Shown: positions 19,148-63,329, numbered from the stretch's first letter. The stretch is DNA of 64,000 bases from Mobula hypostoma (GCF_963921235.1 NC_086108.1:22692001-22756000), one strand, 5' to 3'. Notes: a model not told the origin generated them from the sequence alone. Numbers and translations: made by a program.

Positions 19148-21295
19148 ATAAGACCATAAGACATAGGAGCAGAATTAGGCCATTCAGCCCATTGAGCCTG
19201 CTCCACCATTCCATCATGGCTGATCCCAGATCCCACTCAACCCCATACACCTGCTTTCTCGCCATATCGTTTGATACCCTGACCAATCAGGAAACAATCA
19301 AATTCCACCTTAAATATAGGCATGGAATTGGCCTCCACCACAGTCTGTGGCAGAGCATTCCACAGTTTTACTACCTTCTGGCTAAAAAAAAATTCCTTCT
19401 TACCTCTATTCTAAAGGGTCGCCCCTCAATTTTGAGGCTGTTCCCTCTAACTCTGGATACCTCTGCCATAGGAAACATCCTCTCCACACCCACCCTATCT
19501 AGTCCTTTCAACATTTGGTGGGTTTCAATGAGATCCCTACGCAACCTCCTCTGGATTCCCTTCAATGACAACACATCCTTTTTGAGATATGGGGCCCAAA
19601 ACTATTGACAGTACTCTAAGTGTAGCCTGACCAGTGTCTTATAAAGGCTTAGAATTATCTCCTTGCTTTTATATTCCATTCCCCTTAAAATAAATGGCAA
19701 CATTGCATTTGCCTTCTTTACCATAGACACAACCTATAAATTAACCTTCTGGGAGTCTTGCATGAGGACTGCTAAGTCCCTCTGCACCTCTGAAATTTGA
19801 ACCTCCTCCCCATTTAGATGATAGTCCACACTATTATTCCTTTTACCAAAATGCATTATCATACAATTTCCAACACTGTATTCCATCTGCCACATTTTTG
19901 TCCATACTTCTAATTTGTCTAAATCCTGCTGCAATCGCATTGCTTCCTCAGCACTATCTACCCCTCCACCTATCTCTGTATCATCCGCAAACTTTGCCAT
20001 AAAGCCATCAATTCCATTATCGAAATCATTGACAAACAATGTGAGAAGAAGCGGTCCCAATATTGACCCCTGCAGAACACTACTAGTCACTGGCAGCCAA
20101 TCAGAAAAGGCTCCTTTTATTCCCACTCGCTACCTCCTGCCTGACAGCCTTTCCACTATCCATGCCAGTATCCTTCCTGTAATGCCATGGGACTTTATCT
20201 TGTTAAGCAGCCTCATGTATGGTACCTTATCAAATGTCTTTTGAAAACCCAGGTAAATGACATACACTGCCTCTCCTTTGTCCACCCTACTTGTTACTTC
20301 CTCGAAGAACTCTAACAGATTTGTCAGGCAAGATTTCCCTTTACAGAAACCATGCTGACTTCGACTTATTTTATCTGTAGTTTCCAATTACCTCGAAACC
20401 TCATCTTAATAATAGACTCTGACACTTTCCCAGCCTCTGAGGTTAGGGTAACTGGTCTATAATTTCCTTTCTTTTGCCTTTCTCCCCTCTTAAAGAGTGG
20501 AGATACATTTTCAATCTTTCATCTCTCTGGTACTATGGCAGAGTCAGGTGATTCTTAAAAGATCATGATCAAATCATCCATTATCCCTTTAGCAACCTCT
20601 CTCAGGACTCTGGGATGTAGTCCATCTGGCCCAGGTGACTTATCCACCTTCAACCTTTGAGTTCGCCTAGAACTTTTCATTTGTAATAGCAATGTCACTC
20701 ACTCCTGCTCCCTGACACTCACAGACCTCTGGCACACTGCTTGTGTCTTCTACAGTGAAAACTGATGCAAAGTACTCATTAAGTTCATCTGCCATTTCGT
20801 TGTTCCCCATTTACTACCTCACCAGCATAATTTTCCAGTAGTCCAATATCAACTCTCACCTTTCTTTCACTCTTTATATAACTATAAAAATTCTTAGAAA
20901 TGCTTTATATTACTGGCTAGTTTGCCCTCATATTTCATCTTTTTCCTTCTTATAGATTTTAAAAGCTTCCCAATCATCCAACTCCCAGTCACTTTTGCTA
21001 CCTTATATTCCCTTTCCTTGGCTTTTATGCAGTCCTTAACTTCCTTTGTCAGCCACAGTTGCCTACCCATGACACTTGAGAACTTCTTCCTCTGTGAGAC
21101 CTATCTATTCTGCGCCTTGTGAACTATTCCCAGAAACTTCAGCCATTCTCTGCTCTGCCGTCATCCCCGCCAGTATCCTCTGCCAATCCACCTGGGCAAG
21201 CTCCTCTCTCGTGCCTCTGTAATTCCCTTTATTCCATTGTGATACTTTACTCCATGTGACTTATGTTTCTCCCTCTCATCTGGACCTGGAACTCA
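19148..21295 (-). mobile_element. CR1 LINE, 5'-truncated (~2.1 kb)
   Basis: SQHGFCKGKSCLTNLLEFFEEVT, KFADDT and RRLRRDLIE on the minus strand; (tcttatgg)-type tail near 19150. Confidence 0.93.
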
Positions 21296-40985: not shown

Positions 40986-43787
40986 GGAGACATGGCTGCA
41001 GGGGATCAGACCTGGGAATTGAATGTACAAAGGCATACGTGCTATCGAAGGGACAGAAAGGTGGGCAGAGGGGGTGGGGTGGCCCTGTTGGTGAGGAATG
41101 AGATTCAGTCCCTTGCAAGGGGGGACATAGAATCAGGAGAAGTAGAATCAGTGTGGATAGAACTGAGGAACAGTAAGGGCAAAAAGACCCGAATAGGTGT
41201 TATCTACAGGCCCCCAAACAGTAGCATGGATATTGGGTGCAAGTTGAATAGGGAGTTAACAATGGCATGTGGCAAAGGAAATGTCGCAGTAGTTATGGGG
41301 GATTTCAACATGCAGGTGAACTGGGAAAATCAGGTTGGTACTGGACCCCAGGATAGGGAGTTTCTAGAGTGCCTACGGGATGCATTTTTGGAGCAGCTTG
41401 TACGAGAGCCGACCAGGGATAAGGCTATTCTGGATTTAGTGTTGTGCAATGAACAGGATTTGATAAGTGATCTTGAAGTAAAGGAGCCATTAGGAGGTAG
41501 TGACCATAATATGATAAGTTTTTATCTGCAAGTTGAGAGGGATAAGGCAGATCAGAAGTATCAGTATTGCAGTTGAACAAAGGAGACTATGGAGCCATGA
41601 GGGAGGAGCTGGCCAAAGTTGACTGGTCGGATATCCTAGCAGAAAAGACAGTGGAACAGCAATGGCAGGTATTCTTGGGAATAATGCACAAGGTGCAAAA
41701 TCAGTTCATCCCCCGGAGAAGGAAGGATTCAAAGGGGGGAAAGTGGCCACAGTGGTTGACAAAGGAAGTCAGAGATAGCATAGCATTAAAAAAGAAGTAT
41801 AACAGAGCTAAGGTGAGTGGGAAGATGGATGATTGGGAAATTTTTAAGGAGCAACAGGACTTAACTAAAAAGGCAATACGGGGAGAAAAAAATGAGGTAT
41901 GAACGCAAGCTAGCTAGGAATATAAAGGAGGATAGCAAAAGTTTTTTTAGGTATGTGAAGAGAAGGAAGATAGTTAAGAACAATATTGGGCCCTTGAAGA
42001 ATGAACTGGGAGAAATTGTTATGGGAAACAGAGAAATGGCAGAGGAATTTAATAAATACTTTGGATCTGTCTTCACTAGGGAAGACACAAGCAATCTCCC
42101 GGATGTATGGATGGGCCAAGGACATAGGGTAACAGAGGAACTGAAACAGATTGACATTAGGAAGGAAACGGTGATGAGTAGACTGATGGCACTGAAGGCT
42201 AACAAATCCCCAGGTCCAGGTGGTCTGAATCCTAGGGTACTAAAGGAGGTGGCTCTGGAAATTGCGGATGCATTGGTGATCATTTTCCAATGTTCCTTAG
42301 ATTCAGGATCAGTTACTGAGGATTGGCGAATGGTTAATGTTATCCCACTTTTTAAGAAAGGAGGGAGGGAGAAAACAGAACTATCGCCCTGTTGGCCTAA
42401 CATCAGTAGTGGGGAAGATGCTAGAGTCCATTATTAAAGATGAAATAGCGGCATATCTTGATAGCAGTGATAGGATTGGGCCGAGCCAGCATGGATTTAC
42501 CAAGGGCAAATCATGCTTGACTAATCTATTGGAGTTTTTTGAGGATGTAACAAGGTAGATAGACGCGGGAGAGCCAGTGGATGTGGTGTATCTTGACTTC
42601 CAGAAGGCATTCGATAAGGTACCACATAGGAGATTGATAGGTAAAATCAGAGCTCATGGCATTGGGGAGAGGATATTGACATGGATAGAAAACTGGTTGG
42701 CAGATAGAAAGCAAAGGGTAGCAGTGAATGGGTGTTTCTTGGAATGGCAGGTGGTGACCAGTGGGGTGCCACAGGGCTCGGTATTGGGACCACAGCTGTT
42801 TACGATTTACGTCAATGATTTAGAGGAAGGCATTGTGAATAACATCAGTAAGTTTGCTGATGATACTAAACTGGGTGGCAGTGTGACATGTGATGAGGAT
42901 ATTAGGAGAATTCAAGGTGACTTGGATAGGCTGGGTGAGTGGGCAGAAACTTGGCAGATAGCGTTTAATGTGAATAAGTGTGAGGTTATTCACTTTGGGA
43001 GCAAGAACAGGAAGGCAGATTATTATCTGAACGGTGTGGAGTTAGGTAAGGGTGAAATACAAAGAGATCTAGGAGTACTTGTTCATCAGTCTCTGAAGGT
43101 GAATGAGCAAGTGCAGCAGGCAGTGAAGAAGGCTAATGGAATGTTGGCCTTTAGTACAAAGGGAATGGAGTACAACAGCAAGGAAATCCTTTTGCATTTT
43201 TACAGGGCCCTGGTGAGACCACACCTGGAGTATTGTGTGCAGTTTTGGTCTCCAGGGTTAAGGAAGGACATCCTGGCTGTGGAGGAGGTGCAGCGTAGGT
43301 TCACTAGGTTAATTCCTGGGATGTCCGGACTGTCTTACGCAGAGAGGTTAGAGAGACTGGGCTTGTACACGCTGGATTTAAGGAGATTGAGGGGGGATCT
43401 GATTGAGACATATAAGATTATTAAGGGATTGGACAAGATAGAGGCAGGAAATATGTTCCAGGTGCTGGGAGAGTCCAGTACCAGAGGGCATGGTTTAAGA
43501 ATAAGGGGTAGGTCATTTAGGACAGAGTTGAGGAGGAACTTCTTCTCCCAGAGAGTTGTGGAGGTGTGGAATGTGCTGCCTCAGGAGGCAGTGGAGGCCA
43601 ATTCTCTGGATGCTTTCAAGAAGGAGCTAGATAGGTATCTTATGGATAGGGGAATCAAGGGTTATGGGGACAAGGCAGGAACCGGGTATTGATAGTAGAT
43701 GATCAGCCATGATCTCAGAATGGCGGTGCAGGCTCGAAGGGCCGAATGGTCTACTTCTGCACCTATTGTCTATTGTCTTTTGTCTAT
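40986..43787 (+). mobile_element. Young CR1 LINE, nearly complete ORF2 (APE endonuclease + RT), disrupted
   Basis: YRPPN, MGDFN, GSDHN, SQHGFTKGKSCLTNL, GVPQGSVLGP and KFADDT. Frameshifts near 41565, 41890 and 42370 plus a stop at ~42556. (ctattgt)n tail. Confidence 0.97.
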
Positions 43788-44083
43788 TAAATACAGATAT
43801 AAATAAATAGCAATAAATAACAAGCATGAAATAACAATATAACAGAATCCTTAAACAAGTGTAGTTATCCCCTTTTGTTCAAGAGAGCCTGATGGTTGAG
43901 GGGTATTAAATGTTCTTGAACCTGGTGGTGCGAGTCCTTAAGCACCTGTACCTTCTACCTGATGGCAGCAGCAAGAAAAGAAAATGGTCTGGGTGGTGAG
44001 GGTCTTTGATGATGGATGCTGCTTTTCTATGTCAACATTTCATGTAGATGTGCTCAATGGTTGGGAGGGTTTTACCTGTGATA

Positions 44084-47000
44084 TCATCATCAGGTGCCAT
44101 GCCAAGTTTGAGCTTTGACTGCCATGGCCCACACACTCCTGTTTCGGGTCAAGTGGATCAATTCATTGGTATTCATTTCCAGGCCTCTGGCTGCTGTCAC
44201 CATCATCATTTGTCTTTGTCTTCCTCTTGCTTTCTTCCCTTCAATCTTTCCCATAATTAGCATGCATTCTAACTCCTCTTTCCTAATCACACGTCCAATG
44301 AAGTTACGTTGCCTTTTCATGATTTCATAGATTATTTCTCTTTTTGTGTTTGCTTTGTTCATGACATCCTTGTTAGATATTCATTTCGTCCATGATATTC
44401 TTTGCATCCTCCTCAAAAATCATATCTTTGCTGCTTCAATTCGTTTCCTCATGTTACTAGATATTCTCCAATATTCTGATCCATATAACATAACTGGATA
44501 AATGTAACATTTCAGTACTCTGAGGCAGGTTTGTCATGCCTAGTTTAGTATTGATCAGTATATTCTTCATTCTCGTAAAGGTGTCTTTTGCCAGCCTTAT
44601 TCTTCTTTTGATGTCCATGTGGCACCTGTCATCTGATGTCACCCAGCTTCCTAAGTAGCAAAAGTTCTGTACTTGTTTTATGTCTTCCCCATTTATTCTC
44701 AGCCTGCAGATAGGATTCTTCTTCTTTTTGGATATCACCATACATTCTGTCTTTTTGCAATTGATAGATAGACCCATTTTTGCACTTTCTTCAACAATTA
44801 TATCAATTAAGTTTTGTAGTTCTTCCTCCGTACTTGCAATTAACACAATGTCATATGTATATCTGAAATTATTGATGTTTTCACCACCAACTTTGAGTCC
44901 TCTTAGATGTCTCTTATTTTTTGTAATCTTGTTTCACTGTACACATTAAATAAATCAGGGGAGAAAACACACCCTTGTCTAACGCCTCTCTTGATTTTCG
45001 TAAACTGACTCTCTTCTCCATCTATTCTTACAGTGGCAGTTTGTTCCTAGTTCAGATTTCTGATTAGGCAGAGGTCTTTCAAATCTAGATCTAGAGTTTT
45101 CTGTAATATTTCAAATAACTTATTGTGCTTCACTTTATCAAATACTTTTGTGTAGTCGATAAAACAAACAAATCTTTCTGCACTTGAGTAGCTCATTCTG
45201 ATAGTATCCTTAACATCAATATCGCGTTTCTTGTACCTTTGTCTTTCACAAAACCATATTGTTCTTTACCTATTTCAGCTTGTATCTTACTTTTAGCTCT
45301 TGTTATCAAAATTCTTAGAAGTATCTTGGTGATATGACTCATTAACCTTATGGTCCTATGTAATTCACATTCTATTGCTCCAGGTTTCTTAGGAAGAGTG
45401 ATAAATTCTGATTTTTCATCTCTTCTGGTATTATTCCAGTCTCATAAATGTCATTGATTAGATCATTAAGTTTTTCAATTCCATAATCTTCAAGGGCGAT
45501 AATTTGTTCTATTACTAATTCATCAGGACCTGCTGCCTTTCCTTTCTTCATCTTATTTATTGCAACACGAACTTCAGATTTTAAAATACTTGGACCTTCA
45601 ATGTTTTTCTTATTGTTACTGTCATGGGAGATCTAAATGCTAAAGCAGGACAAGGTGCTGATGGAAATACCATAGGAAAATTTGGACTGGGGAAAGAAAT
45701 GAAAGAGGTGAGAAATGGGTAGAATGGTGCAAGATGAATAATGAGGTCATTATGAATACCTACTTTAAAAACCATCCAAGACGCTTGTAGACCTGGAAAA
45801 ATCCAGGTGATAACACTAGGAATCAAATTGACTTTATTACTATAAACCAAAGATTTAGAAACTCAGTGACTCAATGCAAAACATATCCAGGTGCAGACTG
45901 TAATAGTGACCATAACCCAGTAGTATGTCATATAACCATATAACAATTACAGCACGGAAACGGGCCATCTTGGCACTTCTGGTCTGTGCCGATCTCCTAC
46001 TCTCACCTAGTCCCACCGACCTGCACTCAGTCCATAACCCTCCATTCCCTTCCTGTAAAAGTAAAACTTAAAAAACTAAAGAAGCAAAAACCTGAACAAT
46101 CCCTTGACTACTTGCAATTAATTAAAGAAAACTTAAGACAAAAATTTACAATTGAAGTAAGGAATAGATTTCAAAGTCTAGAAATAGAATCTGTTGAAGA
46201 TGATAGCAATCATGTAGAAATGAAATTTAACTCTCTAAAGGATGCCTTGGTAGAATCAGCAAAGTCGGTGATTCCTAAAGAAGAAAAAAAGCACAAAGAA
46301 TAAATGGATGACAGATGAAATCAAAAATCTAATGGAAGAAAGGAGACAGAAGAAAGCAAATCCTATAGAATATAAGTCCTTAGATGAAAAAGTTAAAAGC
46401 TTATGTCAAAAAGCCAGAGAAGAATGGTTAAACCAGGAATGTGAGCAAATAGAAAGAATCCCTATTACTGATCCAAAAAGGTTATATCAACAAATCAAGA
46501 ATATCACTGATAAAAAGCTCCTCTGTTCTACAGGTGGATGTTTGAAAGCAAAGGATGGTACCATTATCATGGAAAAAGATGAGATTATGAACAGATGGAC
46601 TGAGTATATTCCGGAATTGTTTGAAGACGATCGAGGTGAAAAACCAGAAATTAAGAAAAACATTAGTCCTGGGTATGACTCTAAACTGCAACTGATGATG
46701 AGGCTCTTATTGGGGACTTTCAAAGCTTTGGGGAAAGTGGAGTTATTCCTTAGTCATTCATTGCTCCCAGAGCCACTCTAACCCGGAACGGTAGCACCTG
46801 CAAGGGTTCCTGCTCAGGATACGAGCGAGGCCAACGGCAGATCTGGCAGGTTCAGTAACTGAACTTATGATGGAGAAGGCAGATGAGCTAGGACCTCAAA
46901 TGTCAACGGCTATAGTATAGGCGGATGAACATTTGGGAAGAGAAATGGCTATTTCTTTAGTTTGCCCAACGGTAGGCAATAGCAAACCACCGTTGCTAGA

Positions 47001-47551
47001 TACTAAGTTTCCTAAAATCTATTTGCTAAGAAAACCATGGTCAAACTCACAAAATGTATCACACAACAATAGCATCAAGAGGATTTTCAAGACAATTCTG
47101 AAGATGCTTCACTCGGTAGGGTTGATTCCGGTTAGCAGGGGATCCCCGACCATCATCAAGCTACTGCTCATAAAATTCAAGTAACACAAAAGAAAATTAT
47201 TGCCACTTGGAATGTAAGAACCCTATATCAAGCAGGAAGATTGGACAATATGATAAATGAAATGGAAAGACTAAAGATTAACATCATGGGAATTAGTGAA
47301 GTTCGTTGGATAGGTGCTGGAACATGTCAGAATAGAAATAAAACACTAATTTATTCTTGTGGAACATCCCATACTAATGGAGTAGGAATTTTTATGGATG
47401 AAGACATGGCAAAAAGTGTTTTAGGACATGAGGCAATATCAGAAAGTGTGCTCCTTATTAGATTCAGAGGACAACCATTTGGTTTAGCAATTATACACGT
47501 ATATGCACCAACAACAGATGGAACAAATGAGGATATAGATAAATTCTATGA
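44084..47551 (-). mobile_element. Near-full-length RTE LINE with rearranged 5' portion
   Basis: TSD ACCTGTGATA at 44074-44083 and 47552-47561. RT and (GAT)n tail lie on the minus strand (44084-45610). Endonuclease segments lie on the plus strand (ATWNVRTL, GISEVRW, VYAPT, MGDLNAK, SDHNP). Confidence 0.92.
45931..46053 (-). mobile_element. CR1 3' tail inserted in the RTE
   Basis: Interrupts the RTE at VVCH|VKVKL; atataaccatataac tail. Confidence 0.75.
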
Positions 47552-48445
47552 ACCTGTGATATACTGGACTGAATCCACCACCTTTTGGAGGATTTTTTGC
47601 TCAAAGGCATGGGTGTTCCTATTCTCGACCATAATGCAGCCAGTGAGCACACTCTGCATCACACATCTATAATAGTTTGCTAAGGTTTTCGTTGACATGC
47701 CACATCTCCGCAGAATCCTGAAGGAGCAGAGGCTCTGTTATGCTTTCTTCACAATAATATTTATATGATGGGTCCAGGGCAGGTCCTCTGAGATGGTGAC
47801 ACCCAGGAATTTAAAGTTACTGACCTTCTCCACCTCTGATCTTCTGATGATTACTGGCTTATAGACCTCTTGTTTCCCTCTCCTTGGTCTTATTAACATT
47901 GAGCGAGAGGCTGTTGTTATTACACTCTCAGCCAAGTTTCTGATCTCTCTCATGTATACTGATTCATCGCTATCTTTGACACGGCCCACAACAATGGTGT
48001 CATCGGCAAACTTGTATATGGTGTTGGAGCTGTACTTAGCCACACAGTCATAGGTGTAAAGTGAGTAGAGTAGGGGGCTTAGTACACCTTACTGCAGTGC
48101 TCCTGTGCTGATGAAGATTGTAGAGGAGATGTTTTCACTAATCTGAACTGACTGGGGTCTACAAATGAGGAAATCCAGGATCTAATTGCACAAAGGGGTA
48201 TTGAGGCCCAGATCTTGGACTTTACTAATTAGTTTTGAGGGAATGATGATGTTTTGAATTCCGAACTGTAATCTATAAAGAGCATCTTGGCATATGCATC
48301 TTTGCTGTCCAGATGTTCCAGGGTTGTGTGAAGAGCCAACGAGATAGCATCTACTGTAGATCTGTTGCTTCAGTAGGTGAACTGGAGTGGATCCAAGTCT
48401 CATTCAGACAGGAGCTGATATGCTTTGGCACCAGCCTCTCAAAAT

Positions 48446-54423: not shown

Positions 54424-55085
54424 ACAAAGTGGAAGCAGCTCCAGTTCTGTGGGCTTGTGCTCAAAGGGAAATGCATGTTCGGTGCTTTAAATGTCATTGG
54501 TATCCGGGGTGTGGTCCACCGAGAGCAATCTGCTTGCACACTTTCACATAGGACATCTGTAGAATTCAGAAATCACTACTGCAGCTGAGGAATTGGCTGC
54601 ACCATTTTGCATTCAACGTGCACAAACTGTTGATGGCTGAACTTCTAATTCATTTTGTAATATTCACCTGATGCGTTGAAAGTCCTGCTCCTGATTGGAA
54701 TCTCTATAGGTGATTCATTGATGTCAGGAATCTTGAGAGAGCCTCCAGCTTATTCAGTGTTGAACCCTGAGAGACAGCAGAGGGAAAGGACTTCTGTTTT
54801 CTTAACCTGAGTTGAATTCAGGCCTGGGGGTAGGGTGTGGAAGGGAAGTGCATGCTGTTGAAGTAACATAGGAACTGCTAGATGAGAAGGGAACAAGTTC
54901 TAATGGGTTACTGCCATTCTAATTACTTGATGCAATGATATTGGACTGGTTGACTAGTCAAAACAATTGATGTTTATCAATTAACCCACAAAGGGCCCAG
55001 ATAGGACAGTGGCAACATGTATTGATGAAGGGATTTGGGAACTATTAGTCCAAAGTCACCATTTTTTTCTGACCCCTGCTTTGCA

Positions 55086-56480
55086 CATAAGACCATAAGA
55101 CATAGGAGCAGAATTAGGCCATCTGGTCCATCAAGTCTGCTCCGCCACTCAATCATGGCTGATACTTTTTTTTAATCCCCTCCTCAACCCCAGTTCCTGG
55201 TCTTCTCCCTGTAACTTTTGATGCCATGTCCAATCAAGAACCTATTAATCTCTGCCTTAAATACACCCAAAGACCTGGCTTCCACAGCTACATGTGGCAC
55301 CAATTTCCACAAATTCACCACCTTTTGACTAAAGAAATTTCTCCGCATCTCTGTTTTGAAAGGGTTCCCTCTATCCTGAGGCTGTGCCCTCTAGTCCTAG
55401 ACTCTCCCACCATGGGAAACATCCTTACCACATCTACTCTGTCTAGGCTTTTCAACATTCAAAAGGTTTCAGTGAGATTCCCCCCTCACCCTTCTGAAGT
55501 CCAGAGCCATCAAACATTCCTCATATGATAACCCTTTTATTCCTGGAATCATCCTTGTGAATCTCTTCTGGACCCTCTCCAATGCCGGATGTCGTTTCTA
55601 AGATGAGGGGCCCAAAGCTGTTCATAATACTCAAGGTGAGGCCTCACCAGTGCCTTATAAAGCCTCAGCATCAGATCCTTGCTCTTGTATTATAGACCTC
55701 TTGAAATGAATGCTAACATGGCATTTGCCTTCCTCACCACCAACTCAACCTGCGAGTTAATCTTCAGGGTGTTCTGCACAAGGACTTCCAAATCCCTCTG
55801 CATCTCAGATTCCTGGATTTTCTCCCAATTTGGAAAATAGTCTGCACATTTATTTCTACTACCAAAGTGAATGACCATGCATTTTCCAATATTGTATTTC
55901 ATTTGCCACTTTATTGCCCATTCCCCTAATCTGTCTAAGTCCTTCTGCATCCTACCTGTTTCTTCAACAGTACCTGCCCCTCCATCAATCTTTGTATCAT
56001 CTGAAAATTTGGCAACAAAGCCATCTATTCCATCATCTAAATCATTTATGTACAGCATAAAAAAGTGGTACCAACACCGACCCCTGTGGAACACCACTAG
56101 TCACTGGCAGCCAACCAGAAAAGGATCCTTTTATTCCCACTTGCTGCCTCCTACCAATCAGCCAATGCTCTAACCATGTTAGTAATTTTCCTGTAATACC
56201 ATGGGCTCTTAACTTGGTAAGCAGCCTCATGTGTGGCACCTTGTCAAAGGCCTTTTGAAAGTCTAAATATACAACATCCACTGCATCCTCTTTATCAATC
56301 CTACTTGTAGTCTCCTCAAAGAATTCCAACAGGTTTGTCAGGCAGGATTTTCACTGAAGGAAATCATGCTGACTTTGTCCTATCTTGTCCTGTGTCACCA
56401 AGTGCTCCATCCCCTCATTCTTAACAATTGACTGTAACATCTTCCCAACCACTGAGGTCAGGCTAACTGGTCTATAATTT
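55086..56480 (-). mobile_element. CR1 LINE, 5'-truncated
   Basis: DVVYLDFQKAFDKVPH, GVPQGSVL and KFSDDTK on the minus strand. Confidence 0.93.
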
Positions 56481-61800: not shown

Positions 61801-62159
61801 GTCATTAGATTAGTGAAATATATATTTTTAGTCATTCACCTCTCTTGCTTCTCTACTAGTGAGATGGTTACATGGGAACATCGGTCCAGCAATGAGTGTG
61901 AGAGTGAGCAATGAGTTGGGGTGCGGACCAGCGGGAAACAGTGATAATGATTGAGGAATGGCTGAGCTTGGGAAGTGTACTGGGTATGAGGTTATATGTA
62001 GGTGGATAGCAATGCTATGGATGTCAGTAGTGTGGATATTGGTGGGTCAGTATAGATTCAGGTGGGATGCTGGATTTATGCTTGGGTCAGTGAGGGTTCG
62101 AGTGAGATAGTGAGAGTTTGGGGAGAACAGCTGTGCTTCAGGTGAGACCATGTGGCTTC

Positions 62160-63180
62160 AGATAGGGCAGTATTGGTTCAGATAGAGTGTTGATTCAGAT
62201 AGGACAATGTTGGTTGAGATAGGACAGTGTTGGTTGAGATAGGACAGTGTTGGTTCAGTTAGGATAGTGTTGGTTCAGATAGGATAGTGTTGGTTCAGAT
62301 AGGACAGTGTTGGTTCAGATAGGATAGTGTTGGTTCAGATAGGACAGTGTTGGTTCAGATAGAACAGTGTTGGTTCAGATAGCACAGTGTTGGTTGAGAT
62401 AGGACAGTGTTGGTTCAGATAGGACAGTGTTGGTTCCGATAGGACATTGTTGGTTCAGATAGGACAGTGTTGGTTTAGATAGGACAGTGTTAGTTCAAAT
62501 AGAACAGTGTTGGTTCGGATAGAACAGTGTTGGTTCAGATAGACCAGTGTTGGTTCAGATAGGATAGTGTTAGTTCAGTTAGAACAGTGTTGTTTCAGAT
62601 ATGACAGTGTTAGTTCAGATAGAACAGTGTTGGTTCAGATAGGACAGTGTTGGTTCAGATAAGACAGTGTTGGTTCAGATAGGACAGTGTTGGTTTAGAT
62701 AGGTTAGTATTAGTTCAGTTAGAGCGGTGTTGGTTCAGCTGGGACAGTGTTGGTTCAGATAGAACAGTGTTGGTTCAGATAGACCAGTGTTGGTTCAGAT
62801 AGGATAGTGTTAGTTCAGTTAGAACAGTGTTGTTTCAGATACGACAGATGTGGCCTGTGTGGCTACGGGGATCAGGGGGTATGGAAGGAAGGCTGGGGCA
62901 GGGTTCTGAGTTGGATGATCAGCCATGATCATAATAAATGGCGGTGCAGGCTCGAAGGGCCGAATGGCCTACTCCTGCACCTATTTTCTATGTTTCTATG
63001 ACAGTGTTAGTTCAGATAGAACAGTGTTGGTTCAGATAAGACAGTGTTGGTTCAGATAGGACGGTGTTGGTTCAGATAGGACAGTGTTGGTTCAGTTAGA
63101 ACAGTGTTGGTTCAGATAGGACAGTGTTGGTTCAGATAGAACAATGTTAGTTTAGGTTGGAACAGGGTTGGTTCAGGCAG
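62160..63180. repeat. 20-bp tandem repeat (GATAGGACAGTGTTGGTTCA)n with a CR1 3' insertion at 62848-62999
   Basis: About 40 monomers visible directly. Confidence 0.97.
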
Positions 63181-63329
63181 TATGGGAGGTGTGTTGGTTC
63201 AGGTGGGAGAGGAAAGAACAAAGAATTCTGCTATTGACTCTTCCTTTGGTGCACAGAAATCCTGTGTGCTCACCTGCCTCTAATCCATATTGCTATGACA
63301 TTTTTATCAAGAAACCATCATTCTCAGGC

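Follow-up and report, generated by a model that had tools for sequence, protein, structure and literature searches.

A three-piece RTE-type LINE copy with a permuted, inverted 5' part in Mobula hypostoma, probably made by twin priming and a template switch

We asked how a LINE copy can come to lie in a genome with its 5' part not only inverted but also out of order. Such a copy is found in a stretch of 64,000 nucleotides from Mobula hypostoma (GCF_963921235.1 NC_086108.1:22692001-22756000), which as a whole is called the window below. On the plus strand, the insertion reads target site duplication (TSD), reverse complement of A, B, C, TSD, where the three blocks are:

44085..45612, minus strand: block A, the non-inverted 3' part (end of the linker, reverse transcriptase (RT), C-terminus, stop codon and about three TGA/ATG repeats)
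45611..46664, plus strand: block B, the C-terminal half of the endonuclease and the linker, inverted relative to A (by protein comparison)
46665..47551, plus strand: block C, the leader and the N-terminal half of the endonuclease, inverted relative to A (by protein comparison)

The order was read from a tblastn comparison of the region with seven RTE-type endonuclease-RT proteins of 973-1043 aa. The N-terminal half of the endonuclease is found on the plus strand up to 47552 (for example, residues 13-273 of P0001 at 46772-47552, with 81-86% identity), the next part begins on the same strand at 45612 (residue 287 of P0001) and ends at about 46652-46664, and the RT half maps to the minus strand, from about 45602 to 44093. 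In the orientation of the element this is rev(C)-rev(B)-A, as the original prediction had it. It differs from rev(C-B)-A, the order left by simple twin priming, a departure that had likewise been pointed out.

What kind of element is it? The proteins map in order onto C, B and A, and Pfam domains are found, while the copy's own frame is broken. Block A in particular is decayed, with stops and frameshifts, and its RVT_1 match (E 2e-6, on one fragment) is below the curated cut-off of Pfam. The nearest named proteins come from Mobula rays, with 81-87% identity. The closest ones are labelled "craniofacial development protein 2-like", a label that we take to be typical of RTE endonucleases. As a side note, the title of one reference ties a Bcnt protein to the RTE-1 endonuclease. 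At the 3' end, the stop codon is followed directly by TGA repeats that run up to the TSD, and the TSD has 11 bp with A as its first base in the orientation of the element, which is compatible with RTE but not exclusive to it. For comparison, full-length RTE elements are described as 3.2-3.9 kb long, with one open reading frame for an APE endonuclease and an RT (about 920-1070 aa) and with a 3' UTR that is very short and made up of tri- to pentanucleotide repeats (PMC1291365); their TSDs are given as 7-15 bp, with a peak at 10-12, and in animals often start with A (PMC6007223). The likeness extends to RTE-1 of C. elegans, SR3/Perere-3 and BovB: a length of about 3.4 kb, one frame of about 1000 aa for endonuclease and RT, a very short trinucleotide 3' end and an 11-bp TSD starting with A. 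Judged by its sequence, the element likely belongs to the RTE clade; its earlier classification as an RTE LINE is thus supported as likely by the single endonuclease-RT frame, by the stop codon with its trinucleotide tail and by the TSD. The copy is dead, and we propose no function for it. None of 602 pattern matches in two metagenome scans could be confirmed as family DNA, and the six metagenome loci given a second look were all similar only around the 19-nt pattern. A 39-aa frame that covers the start of C, used in a profile search, matched two repetitive, unrelated proteins.

The junctions between the blocks can be stated quite precisely. Two further features are needed for this:

45600..45612, minus strand: a 13-nt stretch, doubled as an inverted copy at 46652-46664
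45931..46053, minus strand: a high-copy repeat of 123 nt lying within B (3/3 contig runs have the joint 45930 to 46054)

At the boundary between B and A, contigs of other family copies join 46664/46651 to 45599/45612 with a change of strand and 13 shared letters (3/3 contig runs; one of six rows has 11 shared letters rather than 13). Protein P0021 aligns without a break from B into A, and the last four residues of B occur once in P0021 but twice in the window. From the contig joints and this alignment it follows that the 13-mer is single in the family and doubled here, so that the overlap of B and A that had been predicted is borne out, with a length of 13 nt. The missing stretch that had been suspected between C and B is borne out as well: P0001, P0002 and P0003 indicate about 38 nt (13 codons less one base; P0001 skips from residue 273 to 287). 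One contig DNA record has only 21 letters at this gap, as against about 38 by protein, and may come from a copy bearing a deletion of its own. Two bases, 45611-45612, are common to A and B and form a 2-nt microhomology at what would be the join of two cDNAs; the microhomology on the target side is about 1 nt, both being judged without a family consensus. The nested 123-nt repeat, which was missing from the original prediction and which presumably resembles the 3' end of a CR1-type element, was probably inserted later. It is skipped by other family copies in 3/3 contig runs, and the depth over it is 4 to 43 times that of the adjacent bins of B.

Without the nested repeat, the blocks tile the element almost exactly once: 1528 + 931 + 887 + 38 - 13 = 3371 nt. 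This is within the range of full-length RTE elements if the start of C is assumed to be the 5' end, and the copy is apparently near full-length, its 5' end being taken from this summed length. We wanted to know how often such a tiling would arise by chance. When four breakpoints were drawn independently at random, distances no greater than 38 and 13 nt turned up in 351 of 2,000,000 draws, and therefore a single copying of the RNA, in three pieces, is most likely. One template most likely served for all three, with each enzyme halting where another began. The use of two or more RNAs, in which the second cDNA leaves one RNA at its end and continues on a broken piece of a different one, would explain the 13-nt overlap without strand displacement, and L1 insertions from two transcripts have been described (PMC11702581). 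On the other hand, it leaves both near-coincident breakpoints to chance. Furthermore, no difference in divergence is seen among the blocks: family pieces differ by 9-13% for A, 8-13% for B and 8-14% for C (7, 4 and 10 pieces). This comparison, which gives no sign of differing subfamilies, is a weak one, for it covers 21 of the 24 longest out of about 188,000 pieces, and the identity floor of 85% caps any difference at 15%. We regard two templates as very unlikely and continue with a single RNA.

Was there a single insertion event? The relevant features at the ends of the insertion are:

44074..44084, plus strand: TSD of 11 bp, the copy at the 3' end of the element; its last 2 bases are also compatible with the trinucleotide tail
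47552..47562, plus strand: TSD, the copy at the 5' side of the element, which would have been the primer of the second cDNA; its first base is probably shared with block C
43855..44084, minus strand: 3' flank of the host LINE, an older RT-coding repeat (reading frame across the empty site)
47552..48088, minus strand: 5' flank of the host LINE, RT-coding (RVT_1, E 8e-5)

The TSD is the longest word common to both ends of the insertion (44074-44084 and 47552-47562). A comparison of the ends word by word corrects its length from the predicted 10 bp to 11 bp. The 11-mer occurs twice in the whole 64-kb window, and none of 1000 random pairs of ends shared a word longer than 9. Contigs show a joint from 44073 to 47552 with 11 shared letters; such empty-site joints were not counted as an empty orthologue, as they may come from paralogues of the host LINE. 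If the insertion and one copy of the TSD are removed, the older RT-coding LINE, which we assume to be L2-like, is in frame across the site. Moreover, a paralogue of this host at 15900-15456 is collinear with both flanks across the site. Taken together, these findings show that the TSD is real. Block C abuts it with its 3' end (47551/47552), and one DNA record matches C up to 47552. The surroundings of the insertion are decayed LINEs, and the right flank has a perfect match of 184 nt to one record (X1), which indicates close kinship only. No second copy of the RTE-type element lies within the window.

One TSD encloses all three blocks, which fits the predicted single insertion event. TSDs of their own, which had been named as an observation that would speak against it, are absent from B and C (the longest words shared at their ends have 3 and 4 nt). 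One may object that the copy is old enough to be decayed and to carry a nested repeat, so that genomic inversions long after the insertion had time to occur. However, starting from a normal copy, two inversions would be needed, with one breakpoint in common and with their ends precisely at the TSD; starting from a twin-primed copy, one breakpoint would have to strike the join of the cDNAs within 2 nt. Inverted repeats that might have mediated such an event do not bound B either, as none of any length was found there except the 13-mer. The later inversion that the original prediction had offered as an alternative is thus extremely unlikely, since one of its breakpoints must fall exactly on the cDNA join.

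The junctions of this particular copy are as given by the assembly alone. None of the 24 longest of about 188,000 family pieces bridges them, and in one raw-read run (X21) 18 reads were placed, none of them on the element. The shares of words found in the sequence runs (0.27-0.50 for the holders) are uninformative on the presence of the locus. With so many family copies, an artefact made from collapsed repeats comes to mind, and the lack of a bridging record among these 24 pieces agrees with it. Yet misjoins between paralogues fall at homologous positions, and a permuted, inverted block together with an exact TSD that splits a reading frame is not expected from them; nor is there any N in the window. 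We give an assembly artefact hardly any weight.

The order of the blocks itself suggests how they were made. The original prediction spoke of two separately inverted segments. We find it a better reading that B-C is one flipped cDNA, a circular permutation of the native C-B: in that case one jump of one cDNA suffices, and two inversions are unneeded. The extra template jump that the original prediction called for fits the block order and the near-exact tiling. In summary, we think it probable that the copy arose from one RTE RNA in one retrotransposition event, by twin priming and a template switch of the second reverse transcriptase.

In this reading, which combines what is observed (the TSD, block order, gap, overlap and 2-nt microhomology) with an order of events reconstructed from one fossil copy, the endonuclease would have nicked both strands 11 bp apart inside the older LINE. 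One DNA end would have primed at the 3' tail of the RNA, and A would have been copied until the enzyme halted. The other end would have primed internally, at the end of C, over about 1 nt of microhomology, and its enzyme would have copied C up to the front of the RNA. The second cDNA would then have jumped to the place where the first one ended, and from there B would have been copied until the enzyme met its own starting hybrid, with 38 nt left uncopied. Finally, the two cDNA ends would have been joined over the 2 nt of microhomology seen at the junction, and the short repeat would have been inserted into B later on. As a more specific version we favour that the RNA which the first enzyme had already read was degraded to within about 13 nt of the end of its cDNA. 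Such a removal would leave a free RNA 3' end, onto which the second cDNA could jump end to end as R2 does; the 13-nt duplication would follow from it, and so would the absence of a clean homology at the B/C join. Template jumping between separate templates is a demonstrated activity of the R2 RT (PMC8857657), and U6 chimeras with RTE-like elements, made by a template switch, are described from a lizard (PMC4476161).

Comparison with L1 speaks partly for twin priming and a switch and partly against it. The sizes of gap and overlap, 38 and 13 nt, are of the same order as those at the twin-priming joints of L1, where the medians are given as 14.5 and 22 bp (bioRxiv 2024.08.27.596794). The target-side microhomology of about 1 nt, on the other hand, counts against the twin-priming reading, as 71% of the twin-primed 5' junctions of L1 are listed with at least 2 nt (PMC11702581). 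In addition, assays in human cells gave 5' inversions with L1 and, beyond L1, in a single insert of Nimb-2_DR (PMC4245944), and this near-confinement to human L1 counts against the reading that we favour.

There is also a way to reach exactly the same final sequence with ordinary twin priming. A first cDNA of A and B and a second one of C would leave the 38-nt gap, which would then be a normal twin-priming deletion (bioRxiv 2024.08.27.596794), and B would be flipped at the DNA level during repair, through a staggered cut at the A/B boundary. The 13-nt inverted duplication, being of TSD-like length (7-15 bp in RTE according to the source above), is what one would expect from such a cut. However, an extra double-strand cut in the new copy is required before the cDNA ends join. 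Furthermore, the published cases with the same geometry were interpreted as RT switching, an interpretation that is itself inferred from structure. Altogether we consider the flip of B unlikely.

The permutation of B and C, which is exact save for the 38 nt, raises one more idea, namely that a 5' fragment of the RNA with C and B was ligated into a circle, inside which the second DNA end primed and copied once around. As 5' ribozymes are known from RTE elements (PMC8501958, PMC5786205), a self-cleaving 5' end such as some of these elements have could perhaps provide the end that is ligated. But no ribozyme was found in C, with no meaningful Rfam match and none of three twister motifs in this one decayed copy; an HDV-like fold, looked for by eye inspection only, was not convincing. 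A circle would also demand a second RNA, or a cleavage after the copying, for the 13 nt that are present in both B and A. An RNA circle is therefore highly improbable in our view.

Twin priming with a switch at the end of the RNA makes one wonder whether the first base of C is the true 5' end of the transcript. One structural feature bears on this:

46666..46682, plus strand: 5' arm of a predicted interrupted helix with its partner at 46803-46820

When the first 640 nt of C are divided into 91 overlapping 22-mers, the strongest predicted long-range helix is that of the initial 22 bases, which was noticed post hoc. The predicted helix starts at base 2 of C, and this may be a hint that C begins at the natural 5' boundary of the element. 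The folding z-scores of the leader and of the whole region are not significant. It is plausible that the first base of C is the true 5' end of the RNA and that the jump was made there, a view that is based on the summed length and on this one predicted helix. In addition, the start of C matches the RNA immediately beyond the end of B over 4 nt; this match is offset by 3 bases, is expected at 84 of 3310 positions and is a hint only.

Has such an arrangement been seen before? The original prediction had said that twin priming is mainly described for L1. This can be extended: the three-piece pattern is also published, for L1 ORF2p, and so what we see here is not an undescribed pattern. Among tumour L1 insertions, 20 with an internal inversion at the twin-priming breakpoint are reported as "twin priming and 5' switching", beside 1,836 5'-inverted solo-L1 insertions, and are explained by the internally primed cDNA moving to a still uncopied part of the same RNA (bioRxiv 10.1101/2024.08.27.596794). 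Our copy likewise has, where a twin-primed 5' inversion has its breakpoint, an additional internal block that is inverted. With the geometry taken from the text description alone (Zumalave), the match consists in one TSD around the whole, a tail at one end, an inverted C against the TSD, and a middle block B that is inverted, parallel to C and derived from the stretch bounded by the internal priming site on one side and the end of the first cDNA on the other. Unlike the somatic L1 class in this description, however, our copy is of RTE type, old and from the germline of a cartilaginous fish rather than from a tumour, and it is apparently near full-length with a trinucleotide tail, where those have a 5' deletion and poly(A).

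A second parallel is the tripartite GREM1 retrocopy made by L1 ORF2p, in which the middle one of three adjacent pieces runs in the same direction as the 5' piece and against the tail piece (PMC11702581). Both cases show three adjacent pieces of one RNA within one TSD. In contrast to our copy, which comes from the element's own RNA and has the 13-nt overlap and 38-nt gap, the GREM1 retrocopy was made in trans from a host mRNA in cultured human cells, and its pieces do not overlap. Simple twin-primed 5'-inverted L1 copies, as described in work citing Ostertag and Kazazian 2001, share with our copy the single TSD, the inverted 5' part, a small gap or duplication and, apparently, microhomology at the inversion join. 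They consist, however, of only two blocks, whereas the inverted part is permuted here and one more step is needed. For RTE-clade elements, we found no report of a 5' inversion, simple or in three pieces, in the literature searched, which has most subscription papers outside it. PMC2912911 and PMC12016303 treat 5' inversion for L1 and its passengers, and in PMC5389967 twin priming appears in the reference list only.

What does this mean for RTE-type elements? The copy is a real, dead insertion of a known rare class, in a clade from which we found no report of it. The biochemistry of the RTE clade is little known, and 5' inversion is regarded as largely a mammalian L1 trait. The three-piece copy suggests that the enzyme of an unrelated LINE can, in the germline, nick the second strand at an early stage, start two cDNAs on one RNA and change templates. 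Much more speculatively, and with considerable doubt, one might suppose that the RT of this family routinely twin-primes and then jumps end to end on the same RNA or rounds a ligated RNA circle, that the 13-nt overlap marks the RNA shielded by the first enzyme when it stalled, that permuted, inverted copies are a recurring class in the genome, and that 5' inversion is general to LINE enzymes with long TSDs instead of being a speciality of mammalian L1. A single dead copy changes little, and the stronger result may lie in a family-wide count. If the copy is a member of a genome-wide class, that class would offer naturally occurring data on when the second strand is nicked and on the jumping of reverse transcriptases.

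The host LINE, the older RT-coding repeat split by the RTE insertion, has immediately to its left a CR1-like frame of 377 aa which is still open, and diverged relatives lie within the window near 19590-21246 and 55085-56479.

42559-43790, CR1-like RT frame (RVT_1, E 1e-21)
45931-46053, high-copy repeat of 123 nt, antisense to block B
46666-46682 paired with 46803-46820, predicted long-range helix in the leader of block C
46688-46701 (+) versus 44084-44097 (-), leader match to the element's 3' terminal motif (sequence self-comparison)
62085-63211, tandem array (self-matches within the window)

In the tandem array, most self-match offsets come in multiples of roughly 20 nt. The repeat nested in block B, which we take to resemble a CR1-type 3' end, has no clear TSD around it. 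The element's family frame also makes up the last ~68 residues of P0021, a Mobula birostris protein annotated as a 5-formyltetrahydrofolate cyclo-ligase isoform; this tail apparently reflects either the exonisation of a copy or an error in the gene model.

The predicted helix, which has a putative G-U pair at its base, would close a leader domain of ~155 nt. The search for ribozymes gave no match to any family. Starting 24 nt inside block C, a leader stretch agrees with the RTE element's own 3' terminal motif at 13 of 14 positions, a score reached in none of 151 other windows and in one of 2000 shuffles. Such a repeat of the 3' terminal motif in the leader may be a feature of the RTE family.
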